A DNA stretch of 64,000 nucleotides from Candidatus Aminicenantes bacterium. GTDB lineage: Bacteria > Acidobacteriota > Aminicenantia > Aminicenantales > Aminicenantaceae. Positions 4,460 through 45,106 of this stretch are shown here, one piece after another. Position 1 is the stretch's first letter; each line of letters begins with the position of its first letter. The position numbers and the translations under genes are program-made. The DNA lies in contig WJMT01000129.1 in the NCBI GenBank assembly GCA_014727835.1, forward strand, positions 2,036-66,035, read 5' to 3'. The notes beneath the pieces are model-generated. The model did no database searches, was not told the DNA's origin, and was given only the letters and a program-made list of their open reading frames with translations.

Positions 4460-5038
4460 GTGATGATGAAACAGATTCTTATCCCCATTCTTTTTTGTTT
4501 GTGGTGGGGAATTTTTGGATTGGATACGAACTGGGCTCAAAGCCCCTATTCCTTGGAGGAAGCATTGAAAGTGCTGAAGCTCATTGAAAAAGTGAATGCT
4601 GTCAAAGATAACGATTATTCAGGCCCTCTGCGTCAGGTAAAGGTCACGGAAAGCGAACTCAATTCTTATCTGGCTTTTCGGCTGGAGCATGAGGAAGATG
4701 TGATGAAAGAGCTGAAGTTGAAATTGTTTGAGGAAAATCGGATCGAGGCCAAAGTGGTGCTTCGGTTTCAAGGGAAAGGACTTCCCTCATTGCTCATGTC
4801 CCGAATGATTTTCTACTTTGATGGTGTCATCAGAGTCAAGGATGGGATGGTCCGGCTGAGGATCCGGGAACTGTACCTCAACCAGGAGCCGGTTGATCCG
4901 CTGCTGTTGGACACAGTGATTTATTTGTCCTCACAATTCCTGGGAACAGAAAACAACAGCTTAAAGGATTGGTATGAACTTCCATACGGCATCAAAGATG
5001 TGCGCATCCAAAGATCAGCCGCCATCTTCTCTTATTAA
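4460..5038 (+). CDS. Exported hypothetical protein (possible TULIP/LmeA-like lipid-binding fold)
   Basis: Signal peptide; VTESELNSYL motif and beta-rich body; fold assignment is an inference. Confidence 0.5.
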   Translation: MMMKQILIPILFCLWWGIFGLDTNWAQSPYSLEEALKVLKLIEKVNAVKDNDYSGPLRQVKVTESELNSYLAFRLEHEEDVMKELKLKLFEENRIEAKVVLRFQGKGLPSLLMSRMIFYFDGVIRVKDGMVRLRIRELYLNQEPVDPLLLDTVIYLSSQFLGTENNSLKDWYELPYGIKDVRIQRSAAIFSY

Positions 5039-5071
5039 ATACGGGGACACAATACCTATTTACCTTATTTC
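5034..5071 (+). repeat. RAYT-associated repeat copy 1 (ATTAAATACGGGGACACAATACCTATTTACCTTATTTC)
   Basis: 38 bp identical to 14190-14227; overlaps the TAA stop of 4460..5038. Confidence 0.92.
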
Positions 5072-5237
5072 ATTTCATAATATTTGAACAGAGTTTGAAC
5101 CATGATAAATTTGTACGGTCATGCATCCACATATTATGAATAAAACAGAATGGTTGATTGAAAATCATTGGATAATCGATAGATATTGAATATAATAAAA
5201 ATTGTATGGATCCCAAGCCCCTTATAATTTGGGTGTT

Positions 5238-5266
5238 GCTGAAGCGACATTAAAGATTTTGCCTTC
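5238..5266 (-). repeat. 29-bp dispersed repeat module A
   Basis: Reverse complement matches 44823-44851 with 2 mismatches and 22757-22780 partially. Confidence 0.8.
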
Positions 5267-5398
5267 TGAGGACTGTGTTTGAGGGAACTCAGCTTAGCTG
5301 AGCTTTGAGCATGTTTGACTCACGGACGGGGGGAGTTGAGCAGAATCCGAAAATACAGTGTGAGGAATAGCGTTAAAAATTCTTTAGCAAGCACAAGC

Positions 5399-5534
5399 AA
5401 TATGTATGCATATAATTTAGAGTCGTAACAGGAAATAAAGTTAAAGTTATATTTTTTGTGAACATGAAATTGTTAAGAGCTCTGATAATCATAAATTTGT
5501 ATGTTCATGCATACATATTTTATGAATAGTCCAG
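5399..5534 (+). mobile_element. Partial modular MITE-like element (IR-bounded cassette + right end TATGAATAGTCCAG)
   Basis: 13-bp IR AATATGTATGCAT 5399-5411 / ATGCATACATATT 5507-5519; end motif identical to 45092-45105; degenerate extra end at about 5105-5150. Confidence 0.65.
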
Positions 5535-5538
5535 AAAA

Positions 5539-6120
5539 ATGATAAGAATCATAAGCGGAAAATACAAAGGCAAACGTCTCAAGCTGGTAAGGAGTCCTAA
5601 AGTCAGGCCCATGCCTCACAAACTGAGAGAGACCCTTTTCAACATCATCCAGTTTGAGGTGCCTGATATTGTGATCATGGATGGATTTGCCGGAACCGGC
5701 TCTGTAGGTCTGGAGGCCTTTAGCAGAGGGGCGAAAGAGGTCTGTTTTGTGGATGACTTTTATCCTGCCATCAAAGCCATCAAAACCAATATCAGAAGAT
5801 GCCGCGCAGAGGATTCGACCCGGGTCATTCATAAGGATTTCAACCGAGCTGTGATCAAGCTGTCCAAAGAAGAAAAAAAGTTTGACCTGATTTTTCTGGA
5901 CCCTCCGTATGTCATGCTCAAAGAAAGAGATCCTCTTAAGGTGATATACAAGAGAGAGGTCTTGAGTAGGGGAGGGATCATTGTCTTGAGACGCCATTTT
6001 AAAGTCAACTTTAAATCAAAATATTTTGAAATGAGAAGGACCGAGAGAGTGGCTGAGGATGTCATTGAATTTTATGGATATGAAGAGACCCCAGATCAAG
6101 ATCAGACAGAAGAAAAATGA
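5539..6120 (+). CDS. rsmD: 16S rRNA (guanine966-N2)-methyltransferase
   Basis: IRIISGKYKGKRL..VRP..LRETLFN; DGFAGTGSVGLEA.SRGA; FDLIFLDPPY. Confidence 0.92.
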   Translation: MIRIISGKYKGKRLKLVRSPKVRPMPHKLRETLFNIIQFEVPDIVIMDGFAGTGSVGLEAFSRGAKEVCFVDDFYPAIKAIKTNIRRCRAEDSTRVIHKDFNRAVIKLSKEEKKFDLIFLDPPYVMLKERDPLKVIYKREVLSRGGIIVLRRHFKVNFKSKYFEMRRTERVAEDVIEFYGYEETPDQDQTEEK

Positions 6121-6992
6121 AAGGAATCATTAAAGACAAAAAGAAAAAAACACCCAGCCGGTCTCCTCTGTTTGAAAAAGGGGACCTGATTCAAGACACC
6201 TCCGGTGCCAAAAGGACATCTCTGCTTCTCGGAAAGTACACCATCAAAGAAGCAGGCTCTGTGCTGAGAAAAAAGAGTTTTTACAGAGAAGCCAAAAAAA
6301 GAGGGCTCTGGCCTATTGATTTTGATCTGGATTCTTCTCAGTATCCGCCTCTGCAGAGACTGCTCATCTATTACAAACACAAGGATCCTGACACTATCAT
6401 TGTGGACTTGAAAATCAGGGAAGGTATTTTTGAATCTCAGAAAGATTTTCCCACAGAGGAGCGAATTTCTAAATTTCTAGTCCTGGAATGGCTGACTTTG
6501 CAGAATCCCCGACAGGAATTTGGAGAACAGAAAACTCCTCTTCCGGGACAGAAATATCCCGGCTTGAACCTGGGGAAAAAAGTTCTGGACCTGTTTTACT
6601 ATCTGGCTCGATTGAATAAAGATAAAGGGATCATTGCTTATCCGGCCTATTTTCACAACGCTCTTCTTTTCTCCAGATATTTTGATTTCATGTGTCCTGA
6701 AAAAAAGGCGGAAGTTGAAGCGATCAAAGACACAGTTGAGAAAATCACTTTTAAAGAATTGGCCTGGATTGTTCATCTCAACTGTTTGAGAGATCATCAA
6801 GGAAATCCATACAAGTGGGAAGCTGAAGAGATGGTTTTTCCCATAGATAAGAGGTTGAAAAACTATTTCAGTTCAAAAAAATACAAGAGAGAAGTGAAAA
6901 AGGCCAAGGAAGAATTGAAATATTTTGTGGATTGGGACTGTTTTCACAAAAAATCGGACCGTATTCGCCGTTCTCAAAGCCAGAACTCATGA
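6117..6992 (+). CDS. Conserved hypothetical protein (LEWL.LQNP..LPGQ..PGL motif; possible GNAT-like fold)
   Basis: ATGA overlap with rsmD; motif recalled from C-terminal domains of some bacterial histone-deacetylase-family proteins. Confidence 0.55.
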   Translation: MKGIIKDKKKKTPSRSPLFEKGDLIQDTSGAKRTSLLLGKYTIKEAGSVLRKKSFYREAKKRGLWPIDFDLDSSQYPPLQRLLIYYKHKDPDTIIVDLKIREGIFESQKDFPTEERISKFLVLEWLTLQNPRQEFGEQKTPLPGQKYPGLNLGKKVLDLFYYLARLNKDKGIIAYPAYFHNALLFSRYFDFMCPEKKAEVEAIKDTVEKITFKELAWIVHLNCLRDHQGNPYKWEAEEMVFPIDKRLKNYFSSKKYKREVKKAKEELKYFVDWDCFHKKSDRIRRSQSQNS

Positions 6993-7086
6993 ACTTTTGA
7001 AATCGCCCTAAGAACAGACTTCAGGACCTCTGGAATTTTTGCCTCAGGTTTGTTATAATGAACGCCTGATTTAGGAGTTAAAAATT

Positions 7087-7308
7087 ATGAAGAAGAAAAT
7101 TCACCCTGAATACAAAGAATGTGTGGTGACATGTGCTTGCGGAAATAGTTTCAAAACCCGTTCCAGCAAAGACCAAATAAGGGTTGAAATTTGTTCGCAG
7201 TGCCATCCCTTTTTCACCGGGAAACAAAAATTTGTAGACAGCGCTGGAAGAGTTGAAAAATTCCAGAAAAAGTACGGAAAGATCTCCCGGGAAAAAAAGA
7301 AAAAATAA
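7087..7308 (+). CDS. rpmE: 50S ribosomal protein L31 (Zn-binding type)
   Basis: [31 protein letters not shown]. Confidence 0.97.
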
Positions 7309-7311
7309 AAC

Positions 7312-8382
7312 ATGCTCCAAGATTTAGAATCCATACGGGAGAGGTATGACCAGCTCATATCGTCCTTGTCCGATCCTGATTTCATTTCTGATCCCCAAAA
7401 AATCAAAGAGGCATCTAAAGAAAGGGCTGAGCTGGAGCCCATTGTGAAAAAATACCAGGTTTATGAGCAGACACTTAAAGAAATCAAAGGCTCCAAAGAG
7501 ATCATTGAAAATCCGGAGGCTGAAGAGGAGCTCAAAGAGCTGGCCAGGGAAGAGCTGGATTCTTTAGAAAAAAAAGAGAAAAAACTTGAGGAGGAACTCA
7601 GAATCCTTCTTCTCCCTAAAGACCCCAACGATGAGAAAAATGTCATCCTGGAAATCAGAGCCGGAGCCGGGGGGGATGAAGCTTCTCTCTTTGCCCAGGA
7701 CTTGTTTCGTATGTATTCCCGCTATGCTGAGAAAAAGGGCTGGAAAATGGAAATCATGAGCACCAGCTCATCCACTATCAATGGATTCAAAGAGATCATA
7801 GCCAATATCAAAGGAAAACAGGTCTATTCTCAGCTCAAGTATGAAAGCGGTGTGCACAGAGTTCAGAGAGTCCCGGAGACTGAGACCAGCGGCCGGATCC
7901 ATACTTCCACTGTCACAGTTGCTGTGCTTCCAGAGGCAGATGACGTGGATGTGAAGCTGGAATCCAAAGACACCAAGATCGAAGCTTTTGGTGCCTCGGG
8001 TCCAGGAGGGCAGAATGTCAACCGAAACTATACAGCGATTCGAGTAACCCATATTCCTTCCGGTTTGGTGGTCTCCTGCCAGGATGAGAAGTCCCAGCAC
8101 CGAAACAAAGAAAAAGCGCTTAAGATATTAAGGACCCGGTTGATGGATATTGCACAGAGAGAGCAGCAGGAGAAAATCTCAAAAGATCGAAAGTCTCAAG
8201 TGGGGACCGGGGAACGGAGCGAAAAGATAAGGACCTATAATTTTCCTCAATCGCGGGTCACAGATCATAGGCTCAATATGTCGCTTCATAAACTGGAAAG
8301 CGTTCTGGACGGTGATCTGGGAGAGATCGTGAATAATTTGACTCTTTATTTTCAGACCAAGATGATGGGAGAATCCCATTAA
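7312..8382 (+). CDS. prfA: Peptide chain release factor 1
   Basis: GGQ motif; RVPETE (PxT) RF1 anticodon motif; [11 protein letters not shown]. Confidence 0.97.
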
Positions 8383-8391
8383 TTTCTCACG

Positions 8392-9240
8392 ATGATGACT
8401 CTGAGAGAGCTGTACAGGGAGGGGACCTCTCTTTTAACTTGGGTGGATGAGCCGGTTCTTGAAGCCCGAGTCATTCTTTTAAAAGCAGCGGATATTTCTG
8501 AAAAGACACTGTTTTTAGATCCAGACCTTACAGTGACAGATGAGGTCAAAGACACCTATTTTCAAATGCTCAAAAAGAGGCAGAATCACATGCCTCTGGC
8601 TTATATTACAGGAACCCAAGAATTCTGGTCCATGCTGTTTGCAGTGAGGAAAGGGGTCTTGATTCCCAGGCCAGAAACCGAAGGTCTTGTGGAAAAGGTG
8701 ACGGCTCTTTGTCCTCAAAAAAATCAGATCATCATAGATGTGGGAACCGGGTGCGGGAACATTGCTTTATCTGCAGCTAAGGAATGTGCGGATTCTCAAG
8801 TGGTGGGAATCGATATCTCTAAACAAGCGGTTGACTGTGCTCAGACAAATGCCTCCTATCATAAAATGGCCAACGTCTGTTTCATACAGGGGGACTTATT
8901 TGAACCTATGGATTCCGCCGGATTGATAAAAACATGCGGATTCATTGTATCCAATCCTCCTTATGTTTCTGAACAGGAATGGTTATCTCTGGATCCTCAG
9001 ATCAGAGATCACGAACCGAAACAGGCCCTTGTTAGCGGAGAGAGGGGATATGAATTCATCCGCCGGCTGGTGTGTGAAGCTCCAAATTATTTGAAACCAG
9101 GCGGGCATCTGCTTTTTGAAATCGGACAGGGACAGGAGGAGAGAGTGCGGACTTTTTTTGACGAGACATGGGCCCGCATTGAGATCCTCAATGACCTTGC
9201 AGGAATCCCTCGGATCTTTCTTGCCCAAAAAGCCAGTTGA
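8392..9240 (+). CDS. prmC: Release factor glutamine methyltransferase
   Basis: LIPRPETE, DVGTGCG, SNPPY motifs; follows prfA. Confidence 0.96.
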   Translation: MMTLRELYREGTSLLTWVDEPVLEARVILLKAADISEKTLFLDPDLTVTDEVKDTYFQMLKKRQNHMPLAYITGTQEFWSMLFAVRKGVLIPRPETEGLVEKVTALCPQKNQIIIDVGTGCGNIALSAAKECADSQVVGIDISKQAVDCAQTNASYHKMANVCFIQGDLFEPMDSAGLIKTCGFIVSNPPYVSEQEWLSLDPQIRDHEPKQALVSGERGYEFIRRLVCEAPNYLKPGGHLLFEIGQGQEERVRTFFDETWARIEILNDLAGIPRIFLAQKAS

Positions 9241-9312
9241 GCGTGGATTTGTGGGGTGAGTTGCGTTTTGGATTCAAATGATGTATAAAAAGCCGAGGAG
9301 AAGAAGAGGAGA

Positions 9313-10434
9313 TTGAGGATGGCCGGTTCTTTGAAAGTGATGATCATTGTTGAAAACAATAGGCGCCGAAAGTCTATCAAAGATTTTCTGTCCCAATATT
9401 CATTTTTGATAGAAGAGGCATCTGAGTTTCCCAAAGCAGCGGATCAACTGTTGAGCGCCAACAGTTTTTCCATCATTCTGGTGGATTTTGAAGACAAAGA
9501 TAAACAAAAACTCAGCACCATTCAAAGCATCAAGAAGTTCAATCCCGAACTTGGTATCATTGTCCTTTCAGACCAAATGGATGCCAAATTTGCGGTCTCT
9601 TTGTATAAAAAAGGAATCGTCAGCCATGTGGTCAAACCAGATAACAAATCAGGATTGTTTTCTGCAATAAAAAATGAGCTGTTGAGACAAGACCTGGTGA
9701 GAGACAACAAGATGTATCAGGAACAAATCCAAGACATCAGAAATCAGTACGAGAAAAACCTCAGAAGAGCTCTGGACCTTGAAGAAATCTATGATTCCAC
9801 TTTGGAAAACCTGATGACCGCATTAGACCTGAGGGATGTGGAGACATTTGGACATTCCCGGACAGTGGCAAAATACAGCCAGGTTTTGGCTAAAATCATG
9901 GGAGTTGAAGACGTTCAAACTTTGGACAACATCAAAAAAGGAGCTTTGCTTCATGATGTGGGAAAAATCGCGATCCCGGATTCCATTCTCAAAAAGCCCG
10001 GTTCCCTGTCTGCTTCGGAATGGGACAAAATCAAACTTCATCCTTCTCTGGGATACGGACTGATTAAGGAAATCAAATTGGTTCAGGAGATCGGAAATAT
10101 CATTTTGTATCATCATGAGCATTTTGATGGAAAAGGATATCCCAACAACCTGAAAAAACAGGAGATTCCTCTGGAAGCCAGGATCTTTTCAGTTGCCGAT
10201 GCTCTGGATGCCATCACATCATATCGTCCGTATCGAAAAGAGCGGGATTTTCAGTATGCCAGAGAAGAAATCCAGAGAAAATCAGAGTCTCAATTTGATC
10301 CCAAGGTGGTGGATGCCTTCTGTTCAATGGAGGTGAAAAAGTGGGAAAAGATTCGGTATGAGAGCACCAAACTGATGCCTTTCTTTGAACACATGGCAAC
10401 TGTAACCTCTAAAAAAAGCCACCCCATTCAGTAA
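9313..10434 (+). CDS. Receiver-like domain + HD-GYP c-di-GMP phosphodiesterase
   Basis: GHS.., LLHDVGK, HHEHFDGKGYP, ADALDA..SYRPY. Confidence 0.9.
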   Translation: MRMAGSLKVMIIVENNRRRKSIKDFLSQYSFLIEEASEFPKAADQLLSANSFSIILVDFEDKDKQKLSTIQSIKKFNPELGIIVLSDQMDAKFAVSLYKKGIVSHVVKPDNKSGLFSAIKNELLRQDLVRDNKMYQEQIQDIRNQYEKNLRRALDLEEIYDSTLENLMTALDLRDVETFGHSRTVAKYSQVLAKIMGVEDVQTLDNIKKGALLHDVGKIAIPDSILKKPGSLSASEWDKIKLHPSLGYGLIKEIKLVQEIGNIILYHHEHFDGKGYPNNLKKQEIPLEARIFSVADALDAITSYRPYRKERDFQYAREEIQRKSESQFDPKVVDAFCSMEVKKWEKIRYESTKLMPFFEHMATVTSKKSHPIQ

Positions 10435-10639
10435 AACCCTCCCTGTCAATCTCACCTCTAAAGGGGAGACCTTTGCTTTGAATATCCCCCCCTTCTTTAC
10501 TCCCAAAAGAGTATTGTCATAAGTGCGTGTATTGGCTATAGTTAGGCACAGATGAGATGAGTTTCAAAATGAAAGGCCTATTGACACTTAAGAAAAACAT
10601 GAGGTATTGTATGATAAAAAGGGGACAGGAGAATTGATA

Positions 10640-11995
10640 ATGGAAAAAAAAGATGCGTTTTTAAAAAATTCGACTTCTATTATAGAAGAAGTGGAAGAGC
10701 AGCTGAGTAAAGTACTGGAGCAGAGAAGGAAAAAGATTGAAGCGGAGCTGGAAGAGACCATAAACAGGCAGAAACAAGAAGCTAAGAACAAAATCAGTGA
10801 ACTCGAGAATGAAGTCAATGAAGAAAAGGAAAGTCTGAATGAATACAAAACCCTGCTCTCTAATTTTGAACAGGAAAAAAACTCTATTAAGGATGAAATC
10901 AAGTCACATCTGAACACAGTGGTGAAGCTTCAGTCAGATATCGAATCCATTACCAAAAAATCTTTGGATGAGTTGAAAACCATAGATGATTTGAATAAAA
11001 AATTGGAAAATATCAATGATGATGCACTGGGGAAATTAGCCAGTTTGAGGAAGACATTAGAAGAAAAATATGGGATCGAAGCAGAGATCCCAGAAGAGGC
11101 GGGGCCTGTAGATGAGGATTTTGACCTTGACGAAGAGCTTCAGAAACTCAATAAAATCAAAGAGCTTTTGGGAGAAAACGGAAGTCAAGTGGTTCTCTCC
11201 GATTCCCTTTCCCAGCAGTTGGAAGACAACGAGCAAGAGAATGTTGAGACAGAAGCGAAAGAAGAAGAGGAAACCGAGGTTGAAATGCAGGAAGAAGACG
11301 CTGTGCAGGGCTCAGGACTCATGACCAAAGTTGAGAGTGAGGAGGAAGAAGTCAAAACCAAAGAGGAAGGCGAAGAAAAGGCAGAAGAAGAGGCGGAAGA
11401 AGAGGAGAAAGAAGAGGCGGAAGAAGCATCTGAAATGAAAGAAGCGGTTCAGGAAGAAGAAGACACAGAAGAGGAACAAGGAGACAAGGAAAAGGAAGAA
11501 GAAGGTCAGAGTGCCTATGATCAATTGGAAAAGTTCAGACAAACCGAGGGAAAACAAGACGAAGCCAAAGTGGTGTATTTTGAAAGCCAGGGAAAAATAA
11601 CTCTGGATTGCAAACATATCATTGATTCCATTGAGCAGAGCATTGAAAGTGCGCAGGGCCATTACAAAAAGCTGGAGGACACCAATTCACCTAAAGAGCA
11701 TTTCTTCATCAAACAGGAGATCATTCAGGCGCAGGAAAACACCCGAAAACTGATCTTGAACTGCCTGAGAGTCTGTGAGATGAAAGACTGCTTTTTTCCT
11801 AGCTCCACCCGTGACATACTCAATGGGGACAAGCTGAAGAGCATTCTGGAGAGAGTGAGCATGGAAAACTGGAGCAATCAGGATGACTTCAATGCTTTTT
11901 CCGATTTTTTCAATGAATTAAAGGACGAATTTCTTTCCAAAGCCACTCCTTTTGAGGAATATACGGAATCCATATTGAAAGAATTATCAGGATAA
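10640..11995 (+). CDS. Hypothetical coiled-coil protein with a long Glu-rich linker
   Basis: AGGAG RBS before ATG 10640; heptad-rich N-terminus; E/K-rich low-complexity middle; globular C-terminus. Confidence 0.7.
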   Translation: MEKKDAFLKNSTSIIEEVEEQLSKVLEQRRKKIEAELEETINRQKQEAKNKISELENEVNEEKESLNEYKTLLSNFEQEKNSIKDEIKSHLNTVVKLQSDIESITKKSLDELKTIDDLNKKLENINDDALGKLASLRKTLEEKYGIEAEIPEEAGPVDEDFDLDEELQKLNKIKELLGENGSQVVLSDSLSQQLEDNEQENVETEAKEEEETEVEMQEEDAVQGSGLMTKVESEEEEVKTKEEGEEKAEEEAEEEEKEEAEEASEMKEAVQEEEDTEEEQGDKEKEEEGQSAYDQLEKFRQTEGKQDEAKVVYFESQGKITLDCKHIIDSIEQSIESAQGHYKKLEDTNSPKEHFFIKQEIIQAQENTRKLILNCLRVCEMKDCFFPSSTRDILNGDKLKSILERVSMENWSNQDDFNAFSDFFNELKDEFLSKATPFEEYTESILKELSG

Positions 11996-14056
11996 AGAGC
12001 TCACATATTTTTTCAGCATCTTTTTGTTCTCTAGAGACATTTTTGTGAATTCGATCCCAGCATAATAATGCGAAAGATGCCCGTTTCCCTTGTGTGAATA
12101 GATCACCTGGCCCTTGCATTCAAAGGCTTTGTTGCCCAGAACAAGAATAAGGTCTAAGTCTTTGTGGGGCTTGATCAGGAAATTGCTGGCCACCTTCACT
12201 CCTCCCTGGCTGATGTTGATGGTTTTGGTGGCTTCATGGCCTTTTTTGTTCTTATAGATGAGGGGAACAGATGAGTAATACCGGGTGTGTTTTCTTTTTT
12301 CTTCCGGGATTTGCTTTGAGTCTGGCTGTTGGGGGCTTGAATTCTGATTCTGTTTTGAAATCCGATGGTGATATATGGATATTCTGTTTTTATCCCAGGT
12401 GGTTTGATCTTTATTTTCTGAGACAGGAGTTCTTTTTCCCTTTGCTTCTGCTAAGGCCTGGTCTGCTTCATTGACTAGGTTTTTCAAGTTTTCTCTGTTG
12501 ATGGACTTCGGTGATGTGAATTTGTCTTTAAAAAAGTTGGTGATACCGAAACTCATAGTCAAGTTATCTCTGGGCTGGATTTCCTGGTTTTCAAAATAAG
12601 CCTCTTCAACATTTTTTCGGATCCTGTCTGTGAATATCAAGGCTTCGTCTTCATTTTCGAGTCCGGATAAAAAGAAGAGAAATTCTTCTCCACCATAGCG
12701 GCAGAGAAAATCTTCCTCACGTGTGGAAGCTTTGAGGATGCTCCCTAGTTTTCTTAACAGTCGATTTCCTGATTCATGTCCCAGTTTGTCGTTGTAGTTT
12801 TTGAACCAGTCCACATCTCCCATGACCAGAGCATAGGTTCCGGCTTCTCGGTGTCTTTTGTTTTCCTGTTTGATTTTTTGAATGATTTTTTCGAAAAAAG
12901 GATCAGGCCGCAGTAATCCGGTCAGAGGATCATACTGGATCAAGTTGAGCTTTGTGATGGCAATGGCAATGTGTTCACTGATGTGGACCAATATGTCCTG
13001 GTCGATCTGATCAAATCCCTGTGGGTCGAAGTGATGGTGTTTTTTTTCTTTTTGCTTGTTATAGACTTCAAGGATTCCAATCAGTTGGTTTTTATAAATG
13101 ATAGGGATGCACATGATGCTGAAGAGAGGTGAATTCAGCTGCTCCCTGTAGCGGGAGACAATGCTGTCATCTGTGTTGATCTCTGTTTTTCGAAAGATTT
13201 TGGTGAGCCGCGCTGACTTGGCTGCAAAGTCGTCATCATTGAGATGTACGATGTGTTTGGTGAAGTCCACATGAGAAAGGATGGAATCATCCCATACCAG
13301 CGGTTTTAAATATTTGCCTGAGGAGTGATTTTCTTCAAGAATGTAAATTGTGGTTCCGCTGGCATTGATGAGCTCTTTGATTTCATAGATGGTGTCGATA
13401 AGACTGGTGACATCATTAGCCATGTAAAGCTTTTTCAGAAGGATTTCGATCTTGAGTCTTTCTTTTTTGTAATGGTCATATTTGGCTTGATAGGCGACGC
13501 GCTTTTCCATCTCTTTGACAATGGACGAACGGATGAATTTTTTTATCTGTTTTATTTCCCGGAACGCTTTTTTGTAGTCAATCTCTTTTCTTTCCGAAGC
13601 TTTTCTCAATGTTTGGATCTCATGATGCAGATGGGAATGGTTGGAGGCGGTTTCCAGTGTCCGTTTGAATAACTTTTTGTTGTTCTCGGATTGAGAAAAG
13701 AGATAGGTGGCCACAAACCTATTCTGAGGCCATCCTCTGGCTGTGCTGATGATTTCATTCTGGGAATAACCGGTGATGATAAGGCTGGTGTTTTTATTAA
13801 AGATTTCCTGAAGAAGAGTGTATCCGGCTAAAGAGTTATCTGCGATCAGGACATTGAAGGATATTGTTTTCGCCAGGGAGGCTGCTTTTTCCAAATTGGG
13901 GGCATAGAGAACACGTCCTGAATCAGCACAAAGCTCGTCCAATAACAGAGCTTGGTCACCGCTTTTGTTGAGGATAAGGATGTTGTTTGGAAAGCTAGTA
14001 CGCTGATAACGGTAGCTGTTCAGAAAAGAACTGATTTGCTTTTTGCTTTTATCCAA
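11987..14056 (-). CDS. Diguanylate cyclase: degenerate REC/coiled-coil + GAF + GGDEF + PilZ
   Basis: DVDWFK.YND..GH, REED I-site, RYGGEEF; C-terminal EKRKHTR..NISQGG PilZ motif. Confidence 0.88.
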   Translation of the reverse strand: MDKSKKQISSFLNSYRYQRTSFPNNILILNKSGDQALLLDELCADSGRVLYAPNLEKAASLAKTISFNVLIADNSLAGYTLLQEIFNKNTSLIITGYSQNEIISTARGWPQNRFVATYLFSQSENNKKLFKRTLETASNHSHLHHEIQTLRKASERKEIDYKKAFREIKQIKKFIRSSIVKEMEKRVAYQAKYDHYKKERLKIEILLKKLYMANDVTSLIDTIYEIKELINASGTTIYILEENHSSGKYLKPLVWDDSILSHVDFTKHIVHLNDDDFAAKSARLTKIFRKTEINTDDSIVSRYREQLNSPLFSIMCIPIIYKNQLIGILEVYNKQKEKKHHHFDPQGFDQIDQDILVHISEHIAIAITKLNLIQYDPLTGLLRPDPFFEKIIQKIKQENKRHREAGTYALVMGDVDWFKNYNDKLGHESGNRLLRKLGSILKASTREEDFLCRYGGEEFLFFLSGLENEDEALIFTDRIRKNVEEAYFENQEIQPRDNLTMSFGITNFFKDKFTSPKSINRENLKNLVNEADQALAEAKGKRTPVSENKDQTTWDKNRISIYHHRISKQNQNSSPQQPDSKQIPEEKRKHTRYYSSVPLIYKNKKGHEATKTINISQGGVKVASNFLIKPHKDLDLILVLGNKAFECKGQVIYSHKGNGHLSHYYAGIEFTKMSLENKKMLKKYVSSLS

Positions 14057-14189
14057 AACGATTTAACCTTAGCATATATTATACTTATTCAGAAACTGAT
14101 GCCAACAATCAGATCAGTATCCTCTTTTAGCCCACTCAATTTATAGCCATTTTTTCCCCTTGAGTCAACCCTTTTCTTAAATACAGGCA

Positions 14190-14227
14190 ATTAAATACGG
14201 GGACACAATACCTATTTACCTTATTTC
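14190..14227 (+). repeat. RAYT-associated repeat copy 2 (left flank of the Y1 gene)
   Basis: Identical to 5034-5071; ends 1 nt from the RAYT stop codon. Confidence 0.92.
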
Positions 14228-14228
14228 C

Positions 14229-14894
14229 TCATGAGTTTTTTTTTGGCTGCCTTCCTGGTTTTCTTTTCATTAATCTTCTCCCTGTTATTTTTTCTGCTTT
14301 TCTTATGAATTTTTTACTTCCTAATGGTCGTCCGGATTTGGCATGTTTTCTGATTAATATTTGATCTTCTTGTGTTTCTTTTTGCTGTAAATAACTCCTC
14401 CAGTCTTTTATATCAGAGAGAAGATAAAAATCTGAAATCAGTTTGTCGTGCTCTTTATTGATATGTGCTTTGGCACTTGACCAAGAATAATCTCCGGCGT
14501 TATTAACCAATCCAGCTCTGACTGGATTGCGTTCGATGTATCGAACTGCATGATAAACATGATCGTCATCCATGGGATAAGAGAGAAATCTACCCTGCCA
14601 TAGATAACCTTTCCAATCATTTCGAATATTTATTGTAGTTGTGTATTTTCTATGAAGTTCCCCAACAGCTTTGGCAAGACTTGTGGGTTTTGGTGGAACT
14701 GCAATGAAATGTACATGATTATTCATTAAACAGTAGCACCATACTGCGACATTTTCCTTTTTTATATGGTAATTGAGAAGATGAAGATAGAACTTTTTGT
14801 CATTATCCTGAAAAAAAACAGTTTGACGACGATTTCCCCGTTGAATGATGTGATGGGGGCATCCTGGAATGACCACTCGAGCAATACGTCCCAT
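14229..14894 (-). CDS. REP-associated-type tyrosine transposase (RAYT-like Y1 HUH endonuclease)
   Basis: MGRIAR..PG.PHHIIQRGN.RQ; CLMNNHVH (HUH); LWQGRF; YIERNPVRAG (catalytic Tyr); YSWSS; likely start MGRIAR at 14894. Confidence 0.92.
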   Translation of the reverse strand: MGRIARVVIPGCPHHIIQRGNRRQTVFFQDNDKKFYLHLLNYHIKKENVAVWCYCLMNNHVHFIAVPPKPTSLAKAVGELHRKYTTTINIRNDWKGYLWQGRFLSYPMDDDHVYHAVRYIERNPVRAGLVNNAGDYSWSSAKAHINKEHDKLISDFYLLSDIKDWRSYLQQKETQEDQILIRKHAKSGRPLGSKKFIRKAEKITGRRLMKRKPGRQPKKNS

Positions 14895-15001
14895 GTAATA
14901 TTTGACGAAAAAAAAGTCTGGTATTCTCAATAATGGCAAACAATATAAATTTATTTAAAAAAAAGTGTTAACAGGTATGACTGTGCTGTGTTTATTTTAA
15001 G

Positions 15002-15034
15002 AATAAGGTAAATAGGTATTGTGTCCCCGTATTT
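15002..15034 (-). repeat. RAYT-associated repeat copy 3 (right flank, inverted relative to copy 2)
   Basis: AATAAGGTAAATAGGTATTGTGTCCCCGTATTT is the exact reverse complement of the core. Confidence 0.92.
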
Positions 15035-15114
15035 TTCTCTGCATTTTTCTGTATTCATTATATGGATTTGATAAATTGGATTGATTGATTTATATTGATA
15101 TTCTGTGAATTTGT

Positions 15115-15187
15115 GCGCCTGTAGCTCAGTGGATAGAGTGTCGGTCTCCGGAACCGAAGGTCGCGGGTTCGAATCCCGCCGGGCGTA
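15115..15187 (+). tRNA. tRNA-Arg (CCG), CCA not encoded
   Basis: Cloverleaf GCGCCTG..CGGGCGT; anticodon arm TCGGT-CTCCGGA-ACCGA; GGTTCGAATCC T-arm. Confidence 0.95.
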
Positions 15188-15214
15188 CTTTTTTTTATTC
15201 TGGCAAAAAAGTGG

Positions 15215-16036
15215 TCAAAAGAAATCAGGGCACTGTATTGATAAGGGGTGGAAATAAGGTAAATAGGTATTGTGTCCCCGTATTTGGAGTTGGGAGGGGG
15301 AGAAGAGCATGATCTGAGGCTGGCCCTTATAGTGTTCCAAAAGACCGGAGATGATGAGATTTTTTCCCTTCAGTGAATCCAAATCCGGGAACAGATGCAG
15401 ATATTTCTTATACACAGGAACAGCAAACTCTTGGTTTTCAGAGGTGAGAAGCCGCAGGTTTCCTTTATCCTCAATTCCGGTACACAAAAACTCATAGGAG
15501 ACCAGATCTCCCATATGGATTGCTGCCTCTTTCTTTGTGATCAAAGCATAGGGTCTGTGTTTCCACAAGCCGTTTCTTTGGGTTCGGGCCTCTTTCTCTG
15601 CGCTTAAAAATTTCCTTTTATACTCAGGTTTGTATGGAAACCGGGTGTAAGCTGAAGCAAATCCCTTTTGAATGATATACTCATTGAAAAAGGTTCCTTC
15701 CTCTGTCCGGATATAAGCCAGAAGCCTTCCGTATTTGTCTCTTTTTTCCCAGTCATACTCGATTCTGACCTGTTTTTTATAAAGAAATCGAAATGCAAAC
15801 CGTTTTGAATAAAGTGCTTTGAGCCGGATTTCCTCATCATTGGAGCCTGTTTCCGGTGCATCCACTCCGATCAGCCTGATTTTTTCTTTTATCCCGGACA
15901 CTAACCGAACCTGAATGGTGTCTCCGTCATAGACTGCAGTGACGGTTCCGCTGTCAGCTTGCACAAGGCAGGAAACAGAGACACACAACAGGAGAAAAAC
16001 AGCCATTCTTTTTGGTTCCAGCATGCCTGACTTCAT
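15215..16036 (-). CDS. Exported thermonuclease (SNase) with C-terminal OB-fold-like domain
   Basis: Signal peptide; YDGDT, IRLIGVDAPE, DKYGRLLAY motifs. Confidence 0.88.
   Translation of the reverse strand: MKSGMLEPKRMAVFLLLCVSVSCLVQADSGTVTAVYDGDTIQVRLVSGIKEKIRLIGVDAPETGSNDEEIRLKALYSKRFAFRFLYKKQVRIEYDWEKRDKYGRLLAYIRTEEGTFFNEYIIQKGFASAYTRFPYKPEYKRKFLSAEKEARTQRNGLWKHRPYALITKKEAAIHMGDLVSYEFLCTGIEDKGNLRLLTSENQEFAVPVYKKYLHLFPDLDSLKGKNLIISGLLEHYKGQPQIMLFSPSQLQIRGHNTYLPYFHPLSIQCPDFF
15251..15285 (-). repeat. RAYT-associated repeat copy 4 (inside the 3' end of the thermonuclease CDS)
   Basis: GAAATAAGGTAAATAGGTATTGTGTCCCCGTATTT, exact core. Confidence 0.92.
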
Positions 16037-16077
16037 AAACTTTGCCAGAAAGCAGCGAACTGCCAGCAGCCCATGGA

Positions 16078-17901
16078 CTACTGAACCTGTTCCACTGCCT
16101 TGATGATGTGTTGTGCGGAGATTCCGTATTTGTCCAGCAGCTCTTCGGGTTTTCCTGAACGGGGCAGGGACTTGACCGCTAAGTGAATGATCTTTGTTTT
16201 AACAGGAAGAGCTTGAATGACCGCACAACCCAGCCCTCCGCTGGGATAATGGTCTTCCACCACCACCACTTTTCTGCCGGCTTGTTCTGCGTGTTTGATC
16301 AAATCCACTCTGTCTATGGGTTTGACACAGTATGCATCCATGATACGGATTTCAATGCCGTTTTGCTTCAGTTCTTGGTAGGCCTTGAGAGCTTCGAACA
16401 CCGTGATTCCTGCAGCCACCACCAGGGCTTTGTCCTGAGAGCTTTGTTTGATGACTTTGGAACCTCCCACTGGAAAAGAGTCATCTTCTTTATAGATCAC
16501 TGGAGTGGCTGGACGGGTGGTCCTGATATAAACCATCCCCTGGTGTTCAGCCATGGTCTTTACACAGGCTTCTGCAGAGGGAGCATCACAGGGATAGAAA
16601 ACCACACAACCCGGAATCGGGCTGAATATGGCCAGGTCTTCCAGTCCCATCTGTGAAGGACCGTCTGCTCCGATACTGATCCCGGCATGAGATCCAGCCA
16701 GCTTGATATTGGACATGGAATATGCGGCCATCCGGATCTGATCATGAGCTCTTCCCAGAAAAGCTGAGAAGGTCGCCATGAACGGAATATAACCCTTGAT
16801 TGCCATTCCAATGCCCATGCCGATCATGTTCTGTTCAGCGATGTAGGATTGAATAGATCTTTCCGGAAAAGCTTCAAAAAAATCTTCGGCATAAGTGGAA
16901 TTCTTCACATCTCCGTCAATGCACACCACCGCTTCATTGACTTTTCCCAAACTTTTCAAAGCGTTTCCATACCCTCTCCGGGAAGCGGTGTTTTTCTGAT
17001 ACTCAGTTATCTCAAAATCAAATTCTTTTCTCCATTCAGGAGCTGTCACTTTATCCGGTTTGTTCACATATTGTTTGGACTGGATATCAGGCATGGGGCC
17101 GATTTCTTCAAGTGCTTTTTTCAAATCATCGTCTTTCAGAGGCTTGCCGTGCCATCCATTCTTATCCTCCAGAAAAGAAACTCCTTTGCCTTTGAGGGTT
17201 CTTGCCAGGATGGCGACAGGTTTTTCAGAGCTTTTTGCTTTTTTGAAAGCCCCCAGGATTTGGCTCACATCATGCCCATCGATTTCAATGGTCTCCCATC
17301 CGAAAGCTCTGAATTTTACCGAATAAGCACGGATGTCATGGCCGTGCATGGTCGGGCCGGATTGTGATAAGCGGTTGATATCCACCACGGTGCACAGGTT
17401 AGCCAGTCCCAAGTCAGCCGCACTGTTAGCGGCTTCCCAAGTGGACCCTTCAGCGCATTCTCCGTCTCCCATGACCACATACACTCTGCGGTCTATGGCC
17501 GCCATCTGGATGGCGGCTGCGATTCCCACTCCAATGGAAAGGCCCTGTCCCAAAGAACCGGTGGCAGATTTGACCCATTCCATCCGTGGTGTGGGGTGTC
17601 CTTCCAGAGGACTGGAGATTTTTCTGAGGTTCATCAGATTTTCAAAAGGAACAATGCCGGCTTCCGCATAACAAGCCCACAATAGAGGAGCAGCGTGCCC
17701 TTTGGAGAGAACAAATTCATCATTATTCCAGTCAAAAGGGTCTTGAATATTGTATCTCATCTCATCAAAAAACAAACAAGAGGCGATTTCTGCCATGGAT
17801 AGGCAGGTGGTGGGGTGACCTGAACCGGCTTCAGTGGTCATTTTTAAAGAATGGATCCTCAGTCTTTTGGCAATGAGATTTAAGGCCTGATTTTTGTCCA
17901 T
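16078..17901 (-). CDS. tkt: Transketolase (short, about 610 aa type)
   Basis: SGHP, LSKGHA, EGHP, GSLGQG, TPP motif GDGE..EG..WEA..N, IAEQ, DGPSQ. Confidence 0.93.
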   Translation of the reverse strand: MDKNQALNLIAKRLRIHSLKMTTEAGSGHPTTCLSMAEIASCLFFDEMRYNIQDPFDWNNDEFVLSKGHAAPLLWACYAEAGIVPFENLMNLRKISSPLEGHPTPRMEWVKSATGSLGQGLSIGVGIAAAIQMAAIDRRVYVVMGDGECAEGSTWEAANSAADLGLANLCTVVDINRLSQSGPTMHGHDIRAYSVKFRAFGWETIEIDGHDVSQILGAFKKAKSSEKPVAILARTLKGKGVSFLEDKNGWHGKPLKDDDLKKALEEIGPMPDIQSKQYVNKPDKVTAPEWRKEFDFEITEYQKNTASRRGYGNALKSLGKVNEAVVCIDGDVKNSTYAEDFFEAFPERSIQSYIAEQNMIGMGIGMAIKGYIPFMATFSAFLGRAHDQIRMAAYSMSNIKLAGSHAGISIGADGPSQMGLEDLAIFSPIPGCVVFYPCDAPSAEACVKTMAEHQGMVYIRTTRPATPVIYKEDDSFPVGGSKVIKQSSQDKALVVAAGITVFEALKAYQELKQNGIEIRIMDAYCVKPIDRVDLIKHAEQAGRKVVVVEDHYPSGGLGCAVIQALPVKTKIIHLAVKSLPRSGKPEELLDKYGISAQHIIKAVEQVQ

Positions 17902-18159
17902 AAATGAAGCTCCCTTTTAAAAAAATAAGATAAAATGAACATGAGGTTTCAAACAAATCATTATATTATCTTATTTCACACATCACAATATTTTTTTGCA
18001 GCAATCGAAAAAATAAATCTTTCCGATTCTCTGGGAGATGAAATCACTGCGTTGATTCGCTCCTGGTGATGATCTGAAGGGAGCTCAAACCATTTCCGAA
18101 TTTCATCTCTTTTTACAGTTTACTGTTGGGAATGATTCTGTTATATTCATTTTTACATC

Positions 18160-19575
18160 ATGATGGTTCGTGTAAGATTTGCTCCCAGCCCTACGGGTCA
18201 TCTCCATATCGGGGCTGCCCGTACAGCTCTATACAACTGGTTGTTTGCCCGTCATCATAAAGGTCAGTTCATTCTCCGGATCGAAGACACAGATGTGTCC
18301 CGGTCTTCCCAGAAAATGACAGCAGGCATCACCAAAGCTCTTCAGTGGCTGGGATTGGAATGGGATGAAGGACCCATATATCAATCCAAAAGAGTTCCTT
18401 TGTACCGGCAAAAAGCAGAGCAATTGGTCCGCCAGGGTCATGCTTATGAATGCTACTGCTCACCAGATAAGAAACAAACGTCCAAACAGTGGGAATCCCG
18501 ATGTCAGTGTTTCAATTTAACTCAGGAAGAAGCGAAAAAATATAAGGATCAAGGACGTTCCAAAGCCATTCGATTCAAAGTTCCCAAAGGAGAGCTCTGT
18601 TTTCAAGACATATTCCATGGAGAGGTGACCACAAAACTGGATAATATTGAAAATTTTGTGCTTTTGAGAGGAGATGGTCTCCCCACTTACCATCTTTCTG
18701 TGGTAGTGGATGATATAGACCAACAGATCACTCATGTGATCAGAGGCGATGACCATATATCCAACACTCCTAAACAAATTCTTGTTTACAAAGCCCTGGA
18801 AGCCCCGATTCCTTGTTTTGCGCATCAGTCTCTCATCTTGGGAAAAGATAAAAAGAAGCTGAGCAAAAGGCATGGCGAAACATCTGTTTTGGAATTTCAC
18901 GATAAAGGGTATCTGCCCTTGGCTGTGGTGAATTTTCTTGTTCAGATGAGTTGGTCACCGGGAGAGGAGCGGATCTATTCTTTAGATGAACTCAAGGATA
19001 AATTTGAACTGGATAAACGAAGCAGCGGTCATCCGGTGTTTGACCTTGATAAGCTGGACTGGTTGAACGGTCAGCTCATTTCTCAGATGAAGGCCAAAGA
19101 ACTGCTTCCTTATGTGGAAAGAGAGCTGGAAAGGGCTGATTTATGGAGGGATGAGCTTGCACAGGAGCAAAAAACATGGTTTTTAAGGGTCATTGACCTC
19201 TTAAAGCCCAGAAACAAACGCATATCCGATTTCACGCCCAGAGCACGTCCTTTTCTCTCTAGTGACTATCCTATAAAGAGAGAAGCGGCTGATAAATATC
19301 TGAACGATGAACGGCTTCCTGCTCTGCTTCCCAAATTGGCCCGTGACTTTAAACAAATGGACCGTTTCACAGAAGAACAAATCGAGGAAGTGTTGCGCAG
19401 CCGAGCTGAGAAAGAAGGTGTGAAAGCCGCCTTGTTCATTCATGCTCTCCGGGTTATTGTACTGGGGATGAAGGTCAGTCCGGGAATATTTGAAGTGTTG
19501 GAGCTGATGGGAAAAAAGAGGACCCTCAGACGCATGGAGGCTTATTTGACCAATAGACTTGCTCAGAAATGCTAA
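18160..19575 (+). CDS. gltX: Glutamate--tRNA ligase
   Basis: RFAPSPTG.LHIGA, LRIEDTD, RGDDH..NTPKQ, KLSKR, anticodon-binding SPG domain. Confidence 0.95.
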   Translation: MMVRVRFAPSPTGHLHIGAARTALYNWLFARHHKGQFILRIEDTDVSRSSQKMTAGITKALQWLGLEWDEGPIYQSKRVPLYRQKAEQLVRQGHAYECYCSPDKKQTSKQWESRCQCFNLTQEEAKKYKDQGRSKAIRFKVPKGELCFQDIFHGEVTTKLDNIENFVLLRGDGLPTYHLSVVVDDIDQQITHVIRGDDHISNTPKQILVYKALEAPIPCFAHQSLILGKDKKKLSKRHGETSVLEFHDKGYLPLAVVNFLVQMSWSPGEERIYSLDELKDKFELDKRSSGHPVFDLDKLDWLNGQLISQMKAKELLPYVERELERADLWRDELAQEQKTWFLRVIDLLKPRNKRISDFTPRARPFLSSDYPIKREAADKYLNDERLPALLPKLARDFKQMDRFTEEQIEEVLRSRAEKEGVKAALFIHALRVIVLGMKVSPGIFEVLELMGKKRTLRRMEAYLTNRLAQKC

Positions 19576-19588
19576 ATAAAAATACATT

Positions 19589-19622
19589 AAATAGGGTAAA
19601 TAGGTATTGTGTCCCTGTATTT
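19589..19622 (-). repeat. RAYT-associated repeat copy 5 (2 substitutions)
   Basis: AAATAGGGTAAATAGGTATTGTGTCCCTGTATTT between gltX and the next gene. Confidence 0.88.
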
Positions 19623-44822: not shown

Positions 44823-44851
44823 GAAGGCACAATCTTCAATGTCGCTTCAGC
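44823..44851 (+). repeat. Repeat module A
   Basis: GAAGGCACAATCTTCAATGTCGCTTCAGC; copies at 5238 (reverse) and 22757. Confidence 0.8.
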
Positions 44852-44855
44852 CACC

Positions 44856-45106
44856 CCTGGATTTTACGAGGCTTGGAGGGTGGCTTGTGCGAGATACAGG
44901 CATGAAGGTGCAGTCCTTCACTGCGAATGCCCTGTAACGAAACATATGCAGTGAGATGGGCTGGTTTGAAAAGTAAAAAAATGGAAAATAAGATTGAAAA
45001 TATAAACAAGAAAAATGTTCAAATTATTGCTTTTGAAAAAAACTTGCAAATCGCTAAAAAGAAAATGATAATGAAAACATCGCCGTTTTTTTATGAATAG
45101 TCCAGG
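44856..45106 (+). mobile_element. Modular MITE-like element (about 251 bp)
   Basis: Collinear and similar with 53162-53413 (GGCATGAAGGTG..TCCTTCACTGCGAATG..GCAGTGAGATGGGCT..AAAAGAAAATGATAAT..CATCGCC..TATGAATAG); ends CCTGG..CCAGG. Confidence 0.8.

Follow-up and report, generated by a model that had tools for sequence, protein, structure and literature searches.

The 64-kb window analysed here, a stretch of contig WJMT01000129.1 from a Candidatus Aminicenantes bacterium, holds five copies of a 33-mer repeat (none in 100 shuffles) and, between two of them, the gene of an HUH/Y1 nuclease-transposase of 221 amino acids, TIRYT (14229-14894, minus strand; Pfam PF01797, E=1.9e-13). TIR2 (14193-14225, plus strand) and TIR3 (15002-15034, minus strand) form a perfect 33-nt inverted pair around this open reading frame (ORF) and are the left and right terminal inverted repeats (TIRs) of an element from which the AAATAC end of the repeat, its tip, points outward. 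The other three copies are solo: TIR1 (5037-5069, plus strand), whose tip overlaps the natural TAA of an upstream hypothetical gene (4460-5038); TIR4 (15253-15285, minus strand), in the 3' end of an SNase-family gene; and TIR5 (19590-19622, minus strand, two mismatches), in the interval between gltX and a BNR-repeat gene, its tip 15 nt from an ATG and adjoining the ribosome-binding site. GGGGACAC, which contains the GGGGWSAS motif, is present in TIR1-4. The five copies listed in an earlier note on this DNA are real, the starts given there lying 0-3 nt further out, mostly in shared flank; its second and third copies do enclose a Y1_Tnp gene as an inverted pair, the remaining 44 kb is free of copies at up to three mismatches, and, again as the note had it, no target duplication is visible around the window copies. 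The repeat is also non-palindromic, as claimed: in seven of seven folds z lay between -1.0 and +0.5, no better than shuffles, and with no stable fold, recognition of the repeat as a hairpin was rejected. The only Rfam match was to a tRNA, with none for the repeat.

TIRYT carries H60-V-H62, W99, Y119, N123 and SS139-140, followed by a C-terminal helical extension and a basic tail; H60, H62, W99, Y119, N123, S139 and S140 are invariant across 119 aligned homologues. Its AlphaFold2 model (pLDDT 92) has E. coli TnpA-REP (4ER8) as top fold match (Foldseek E=3e-9). The signature NHVH, WQ99-100, YIERNP (Y-x3-NP) and SS139-140 matches subclass 2.1 in Table 1 of Quentin et al. 2018 (PMC6006769), an assignment made by comparison with the motifs of that table, and the 221 residues with C-terminal extension agree with the length near 238 amino acids of that subclass. 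No Pfam helix-turn-helix domain was found in TIRYT, such as the C-terminal Bac_DnaA_C, HTH_23 or HTH_28 of published TIRYT examples and subgroup 2.1.2; subgroup 2.1.1, with a conserved extension of another kind, would thus seem the better fit. A REPtron would have a palindromic REP with a GT[AG]G foot; here we see neither hairpin nor GTAG foot, and the score against NCBIfam NF047646 is 64.9 bits, under the cut-off of 80. IS200/IS605 elements do not fit either, given the lack of a hairpin, a Y-x3-NP rather than Y-x3-Q motif and a single gene copy. The element is a TIRtron, an intact HUH/Y1 gene of TnpA-Y1 subclass 2.1 between inverted GGGGACAC repeats, because its subclass motifs, TIR-flanked gene, GGGGWSAS and moderately abundant TIR family are features already published for such elements (PMC6006769; PMC3733652, in the parts of both papers that treat them). 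The GGGGWSAS link to some Y1 subfamilies, raised in the earlier note, was correct and is in print under the names TIRYT and TIRtron.

We compared the source genome (G000, 132 contigs) with eight relatives (G001-G008) and with a single-contig genome of 4.3 Mb (G027). G000 carries one TIRYT copy; its two other Y1 genes are 24-25% identical to it and have different flanking repeats. A second TIRtron (C123:7203-8209) has a TIR of GGGGACGG type with seven genome-wide matches at up to one mismatch, and the third Y1 gene (C49) has yet another inverted repeat. G000, G002 and G003 share a GGDEF-tRNA locus with a Y1 gene in it; these three genes are monophyletic (support 100/99), the one in G003 being broken (without its N-terminus and with one internal stop), and dN/dS, the ratio of nonsynonymous to synonymous substitution rates, is about 0.13 for TIRYT. 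This supports an HUH/Y1 gene that is single-copy, stably inherited and accompanied by a non-hairpin repeat of its own, and to this extent the domesticated system proposed in the earlier note stands. We also considered the solo copies as remnants of whole-element hops; this was rejected, as neither tblastn nor blastn found other TIRYT gene fragments.

What does not stand is the claim that the repeat has spread only locally. Up to seven mismatches, G000 holds 58 copies on 26 contigs, and a profile search finds 62 on 28 of the 132 contigs, with none in the reversed-genome control (a looser family regular expression, with 226 matches vs 150 in its control, was uninformative and kept out of the counts). 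Their distribution is patchy: of 57 sites, 26 lie no more than 5 kb from another, whereas 5000 simulations gave 7.6 such sites on average and never more than 22. With the contigs ordered on G002:C9, about 7 of the 55 non-terminal sites fall no further than about 60 kb from the gene, where a hand calculation gives about 2 as the expectation, which amounts to mild regional enrichment only. In G027 the cognate repeat is spread over the whole 4.3 Mb, with 81 matches at 50 sites, of which 30 are multi-copy, for the most part as inverted doublets. Six of the sites are less than 60 kb from the gene, where 1.3 are expected, and none is closer than 25 kb (the 60-kb limit was picked post hoc). Tags deposited only in cis, close to the gene, would agree with the local excess in both genomes and with all five copies of the 156-kb contig lying within 15 kb of each other; yet about 48 of the 55 sites are elsewhere, on more than 20 other contigs, and G027 repeats the pattern, so that we find this explanation hardly credible. 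Doublets are the rule among the G027 repeats and G000 copies are mostly single; a near-identical repeat occurs as a head-to-head perfect hairpin dimer on a GC-rich, unrelated metagenome contig (L054:1501-1570).

The solo copies set their tips against coding boundaries. The TAA of the tip closes an ORF of at least 100 codons in 24 of the 62 copies, where random intergenic placement would give 2.1%; of the 45 copies with a TAA tip, 24 have this overlap, compared with 472 of 5008 intergenic TAAA. The stop-flush ORFs are not antisense shadows, a possibility rejected by a dicodon gene model and by Pfam, to whose families all seven tested ORFs match, one under its cut-off. By that gene model, the outer neighbour is a gene end in 30/52 copies, and in 20 of these 30 the copy overlaps the stop of that gene. 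Tips lie a median of 9.5 nt from a gene boundary and inner ends 116.5 nt (p=2e-5; n=52 copies flanked by genes on either side, leaving out in-gene copies and the inner members of tandems). Several copies adjoin ribosome-binding sites, and many lie between convergent genes; the neighbour orientations (16 same, 5 inward, 2 outward) were not taken as signal. The tips of G027 are suggestive of the same placement, with a TAA at -1 closing an ORF of at least 100 codons in 18 of 50 fetched copies, these being chosen loci counted with no coding model or null. A systematic C-terminal truncation of genes by the repeat was considered and is not established, eight genes differing in length from their orthologues by -2 to +2 codons.

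The orthologous elements of G000, G002 and G003 have three different TIR middles (GGGGACACAA, GTAACACAA and GTACCGTCT), with tip and TACCYRTTYACC block kept; GTAACAC in G002 and GTACCGT in G003 take the place of GGGGACAC, and GGGGWSAS is absent from both. GGGGACAC is not the invariant core of the repeat: what is conserved is the AAWACRG tip together with the inner block TACCYRTTYACC, and the 8 nt in the middle vary by lineage. Dispersed copies of GTACCGT type number 53 in G001, 23 in G003, 17 in G007 and 8 in G000, and those of GTAACAC type 18 in G002 and none in G004, G005, G006 and G008. The latter four genomes have 0-1 copies of the family and no Y1 above about 30% identity, and in them, as in G007, the locus is without Y1. 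At the TIR2 position, the empty sites of G004, G005 and G008 hold a tip-like A-run followed by ACAGG, which is either the original target or the remnant of a lost element, and at TIR1 there is no repeat in G002, G005 and G008. In G003, by comparison with G000, G002 and outgroups, a block of tRNA-Arg and Y1 (C98:1183-2046, L036) lies in inverted orientation between the positions of TIR2 and TIR4.

Different variants stand at shared sites. We projected the sites of relatives onto G000 by their outer flank (all 23 copies of G003, all 17 of G007, all 18 of G002 and 40 of the 53 of G001, tandems collapsed), leaving out of the scoring 30 sites without an outer-flank orthologue and 3 at G000 contig ends. 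Twenty-nine of the 52 scorable sites are filled in G000, 23 of them with its own variant, where chance filling is about 1.2% per gene boundary. By genome, 12 of 13 G003 sites are filled (10 with the G000 variant), 6 of 10 from G007 (4), 4 of 19 from G001 (3) and 7 of 10 from G002 (6). The automated test accounts for 14 distinct G000 sites, to which inspection by eye adds TIR3 and C52:12499, and the five window copies all belong to this set: other variants occupy the TIR1 site in G007, the TIR2 site in G001, G002 and G003, the TIR3 site in G002 and G003 and the TIR5 site in G003 and G007, while TIR4, read in frame in G000, gives the stop in G003. In the 17 pairs from G003, G007 and G001 with the G000 variant, 8-14 of 33 nt differ, as compared with 10.5-12.0 for random cross-genome pairs and 3.8-4.8 for copy pairs within a genome; neighbouring genes have a synonymous divergence (dS) of 1.5-2.5. 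As a positive control, seven orthologous pairs between the sisters G003 and G007 show 1.4 differences in 29 nt, vs 3.7 for random pairs; these two genomes keep site-specific variants, and thus the sites are inherited and the method detects inheritance.

Possible traces of an order of events lie beside the copies. In 6 of the 62 G000 copies a decayed copy of the old type is found 2-16 nt inside, and in none outside; the other adjoining matches (three inner, three outer) are new-type tandems. Two of the six are in the window, namely a GTACCGT-like repeat 8 nt inside TIR3 (14961-14993, minus strand; score 27.3, the 99th percentile of the background being 6.1) and another 12 nt inside TIR4 (15208-15240, minus strand; score 19.6). 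Short tandem duplications spanning the tip occur at 30/160 tips in five genomes, vs 2/160 inner ends and 16/5000 random intergenic AAA, and consist of 6-18 bases of the tip together with 0-5 of the flank, a few having as many as 9 flank bases. One such stutter, a partial tip fragment, lies outside TIR2 (14179-14187, plus strand), with stutters at the matching site in G001, G002 and G003. Elsewhere in G000, the paralogous genes of C22/C110 and of C92/C130 run into the repeat at a shared C-terminal junction, where one paralogue has the old variant and the other the new; small contigs among these could be co-binned.

Overall, we suggest, with a probability of roughly 0.55, a vertically inherited TIRtron whose enzyme likely maintains some 60 solo copies by nicking outside their tips and rejoining the current version of the repeat there. 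The suggestion builds on the element itself, its copy number, the tips at gene ends, the lineage variants at shared sites, the old copies inside new ones and the tip-spanning duplications. TIRYT would bind the repeat without a hairpin, via the AAWACRG tip and the TACCYRTTYACC inner block, and Y119 would cut about 0-5 nt (mostly 1-4) outside the AAWAC tip, giving a 5'-phosphotyrosine and a 3'-OH on the flank. After extension through the tip, religation in place might then produce the duplications of flank and tip, as in the amplification model of TnpA-REP, an enzyme proposed to recombine into REP-bearing targets and to add tandem units (PMC3333891, in its account of amplification). A repeat excised or copied elsewhere could be joined at such a nick, leaving the new variant outermost while the older copy decays or is deleted; the order of new outside old would follow because the current-version repeat joins at a nick outside the tip, and inherited sites would be overwritten as the outcome of nick and rejoining. 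Repeated cycles at the tip may erode flanking DNA, shifting the tip outward, until selection halts them at a stop codon or ribosome-binding site, and new sites would be rarer, often near existing copies, hence the patches. More tentatively, and at somewhat less than even odds, TIRYT could be a domesticated re-writer of tags, one that recognises a 33-nt tag with no hairpin, cuts a few bases beyond the tip of that tag and imposes the current master version on dozens of inherited sites.

Several observations weigh against this proposal. Of the 19 G001 sites that could be scored, 15 hold no copy in G000, which means that new sites do arise; G001, with its 53 old-type copies, has a best Y1 of 27% identity, its assembly being broken on both sides of the locus, and G007 keeps 17 copies with no TIRtron at the locus, its 65%-identical Y1 having other TIRs. 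Only 6 of the 62 copies keep an old remnant, and gene conversion accounts just as well for the others. Paralogues are among the best hits (C22/C110, C92/C130, C55/C52), the genomes are related, sites recur (the 14 distinct ones of the automated test), and all genomes are metagenome-assembled. For close strains with base-exact empty sites, a metagenome scan gave one unrelated locus, two contig sets were distant relatives, and a search across genome contigs gave three loci. Coupling to the replication fork is without support, as local GC skew shows no strand bias (32/62 copies), in a test made crude by the contigs being unordered.

Ordinary gene conversion between short repeats could itself keep inherited sites uniform, TIRYT accounting only for first insertions and an occasional tandem duplication. 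The 56 copies lacking an old-type remnant, the intermediate variants GTGCCAC, GTGACAC and GTAACAC in G000 and G002, and a copy whose outer half is new and inner half old (C110:15198) are what it would leave, and the G003 inversion between TIR2 and TIR4 demonstrates that the repeats can recombine. It predicts, however, neither the 6:0 polarity of new outside and old inside nor duplications confined to the tip, and it should not have left old copies to decay right beside a new one; 33 nt with up to 10 mismatches is, besides, a poor substrate for recombination. We consider it unlikely. A lesser chance still belongs to independent insertion by each lineage into shared hot spots (tip-like AAAAACAG at gene ends) with no inheritance of sites, for which the tip-like A-runs at empty outgroup TIR2 sites, the unchanged position of the natural stop at the TIR1 site and the patchiness of the copies might speak. 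Twelve shared sites out of 13 would, nevertheless, require extreme target specificity among some 5400 gene boundaries; sister genomes share site-specific variants, and the decayed copies inside TIR3 and TIR4 are of the relatives' type exactly where G003 has that type.

The persistence of sites while synonymous positions near saturation would also be expected of a host regulatory site, a transcription-factor operator or RNA element under selection that co-evolves with its binder, with Y1 as one regulated neighbour; the copies at ribosome-binding sites and the lack of a hairpin are compatible with this. But in 30/52 copies the outer neighbour is a gene end, many copies lie between convergent genes, an inverted pair brackets Y1 both here and in most homologous loci, each with its own sequence, and the repeat is near-absent in the four congeners without this Y1 clade and has no Rfam match. 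Such an origin is thus very improbable, though the repeat may have a secondary regulatory use. Nick-and-rejoin maintenance by the enzyme remains the reading that we prefer.

The surroundings of the element have features of their own. The SNase-family gene (15215-16036, minus strand) is about 20 codons longer than its orthologues, the extension running through TIR4. Between TIR3 and TIR4 lies a tRNA-Arg(CCG) gene (15115-15188, plus strand), the one inverted along with Y1 in G003, which looks like an island integration site in relatives: in G006 its 3' half is duplicated after about 6 kb, and G002 and G004 have inserts of 2.5-5 kb ahead of the SNase gene. Upstream of the Y1 gene, the best promoter-like match (14942-14971, minus strand; 10/12) has a -35 box that is part of the decayed old-type repeat; in total, matches of this kind are at chance level (5 vs 4.5). 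The spacer behind TIR1 (5070-5538) is 500 nt in G000 vs about 50-150 nt in relatives, with a 49-nt direct repeat (5102/5488) and a 54-nt stretch that has an inverted 81% match at 44823-44876. The tkt-gltX spacer (17902-18159) is empty in G000, holds an inverted pair of a different, GGGGAC-type TIR family in G004 and G008, and has their own TIR in G002 and G001; positions 18072-18109 match a multi-copy element of G001, G004, G006 and G008.

Subclass 2.1 is the second-largest Y1 group, present in 14.9% of species according to Quentin et al. 2018 (PMC6006769), and the sections on it there and in PMC3733652 give no substrate, cut site or function. The present clade offers testable specifics, namely conserved as opposed to free repeat bases, a predicted cut 1-4 nt outside the tip and existing tips as the target it is predicted to prefer, and its three natural pairs of enzyme and repeat variant at one orthologous locus suit swap tests. 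In-place replacement also bears on the long-lasting homogeneity of REP-like repeat populations. Were TIRYT a re-writer, it would be a case of concerted evolution led by an enzyme, with tags ratcheted to stop codons and ribosome-binding sites, of self-targeting, hairpin-independent HUH insertion chemistry, of inverted pairs left behind that invert host DNA, like the tRNA and Y1 block of G003, and of tagged gene boundaries kept for host function. The element type is already known; the comparative evidence points to a specific and testable re-writing mechanism.

The closest known systems share much with it. TIRtrons, with their TIRYTs and dispersed TIR families, were described by Di Nocera, De Gregorio and Rocco 2013 (PMC3733652), and PMC6006769, where it defines subclass 2.1, equates it with these TIRYTs and with group 1 RAYT. 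Like our element, they have a RAYT-like Y1 gene and non-REP inverted repeats, the majority with GGGGWSAS, found as singles, dimers and clusters (PMC3733652), and a moderately abundant repeat family with motifs NHVH, WQ, YIExNP and SS (PMC3733652; PMC6006769). Replacement at persistent sites, tandems with new outside old, tip duplications and orthologous TIRtrons that lost GGGGWSAS are, by contrast, not described in the parts of these two papers that deal with such elements, and we found no account of in-place replacement in the open-access literature. IS200/IS605 TnpA has the HUH/Y1 core and makes no target duplication, as here, but the TIRYT element is without subterminal hairpins and tnpB and is single copy at a fixed locus. 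E. coli TnpA-REP with its BIMEs (PMC3333891; PMC8266576; PDB 4ER8) is, in the relevant sections, also a domesticated single-copy gene of the same fold, with a proposed nick-extend-rejoin amplification and integration into REP-bearing targets (PMC3333891); it differs in needing a GTAG foot and hairpin, both absent here, is 19% identical by structural alignment and lacks about 60 C-terminal residues of TIRYT. GTAG REP termini, as treated in section 15 of PMC3733652, likewise often give the stop of the flanking ORF, yet there TAG comes from the GTAG foot, and here TAA comes from the TIR tip with a strong outer/inner polarity. The RAYT/REP orthoswitch (Nunvar et al. 2010, PMC2817692; 2013, PMC3686654, in their accounts of it) likewise involves syntenic orthologous Y1 genes with different variants, the new one multiplied; however, its REPs are palindromic with GTAG, and its new variants spread while old copies stay and decay (PMC3686654), whereas in G000 the new variant sits at the old variant's own sites.

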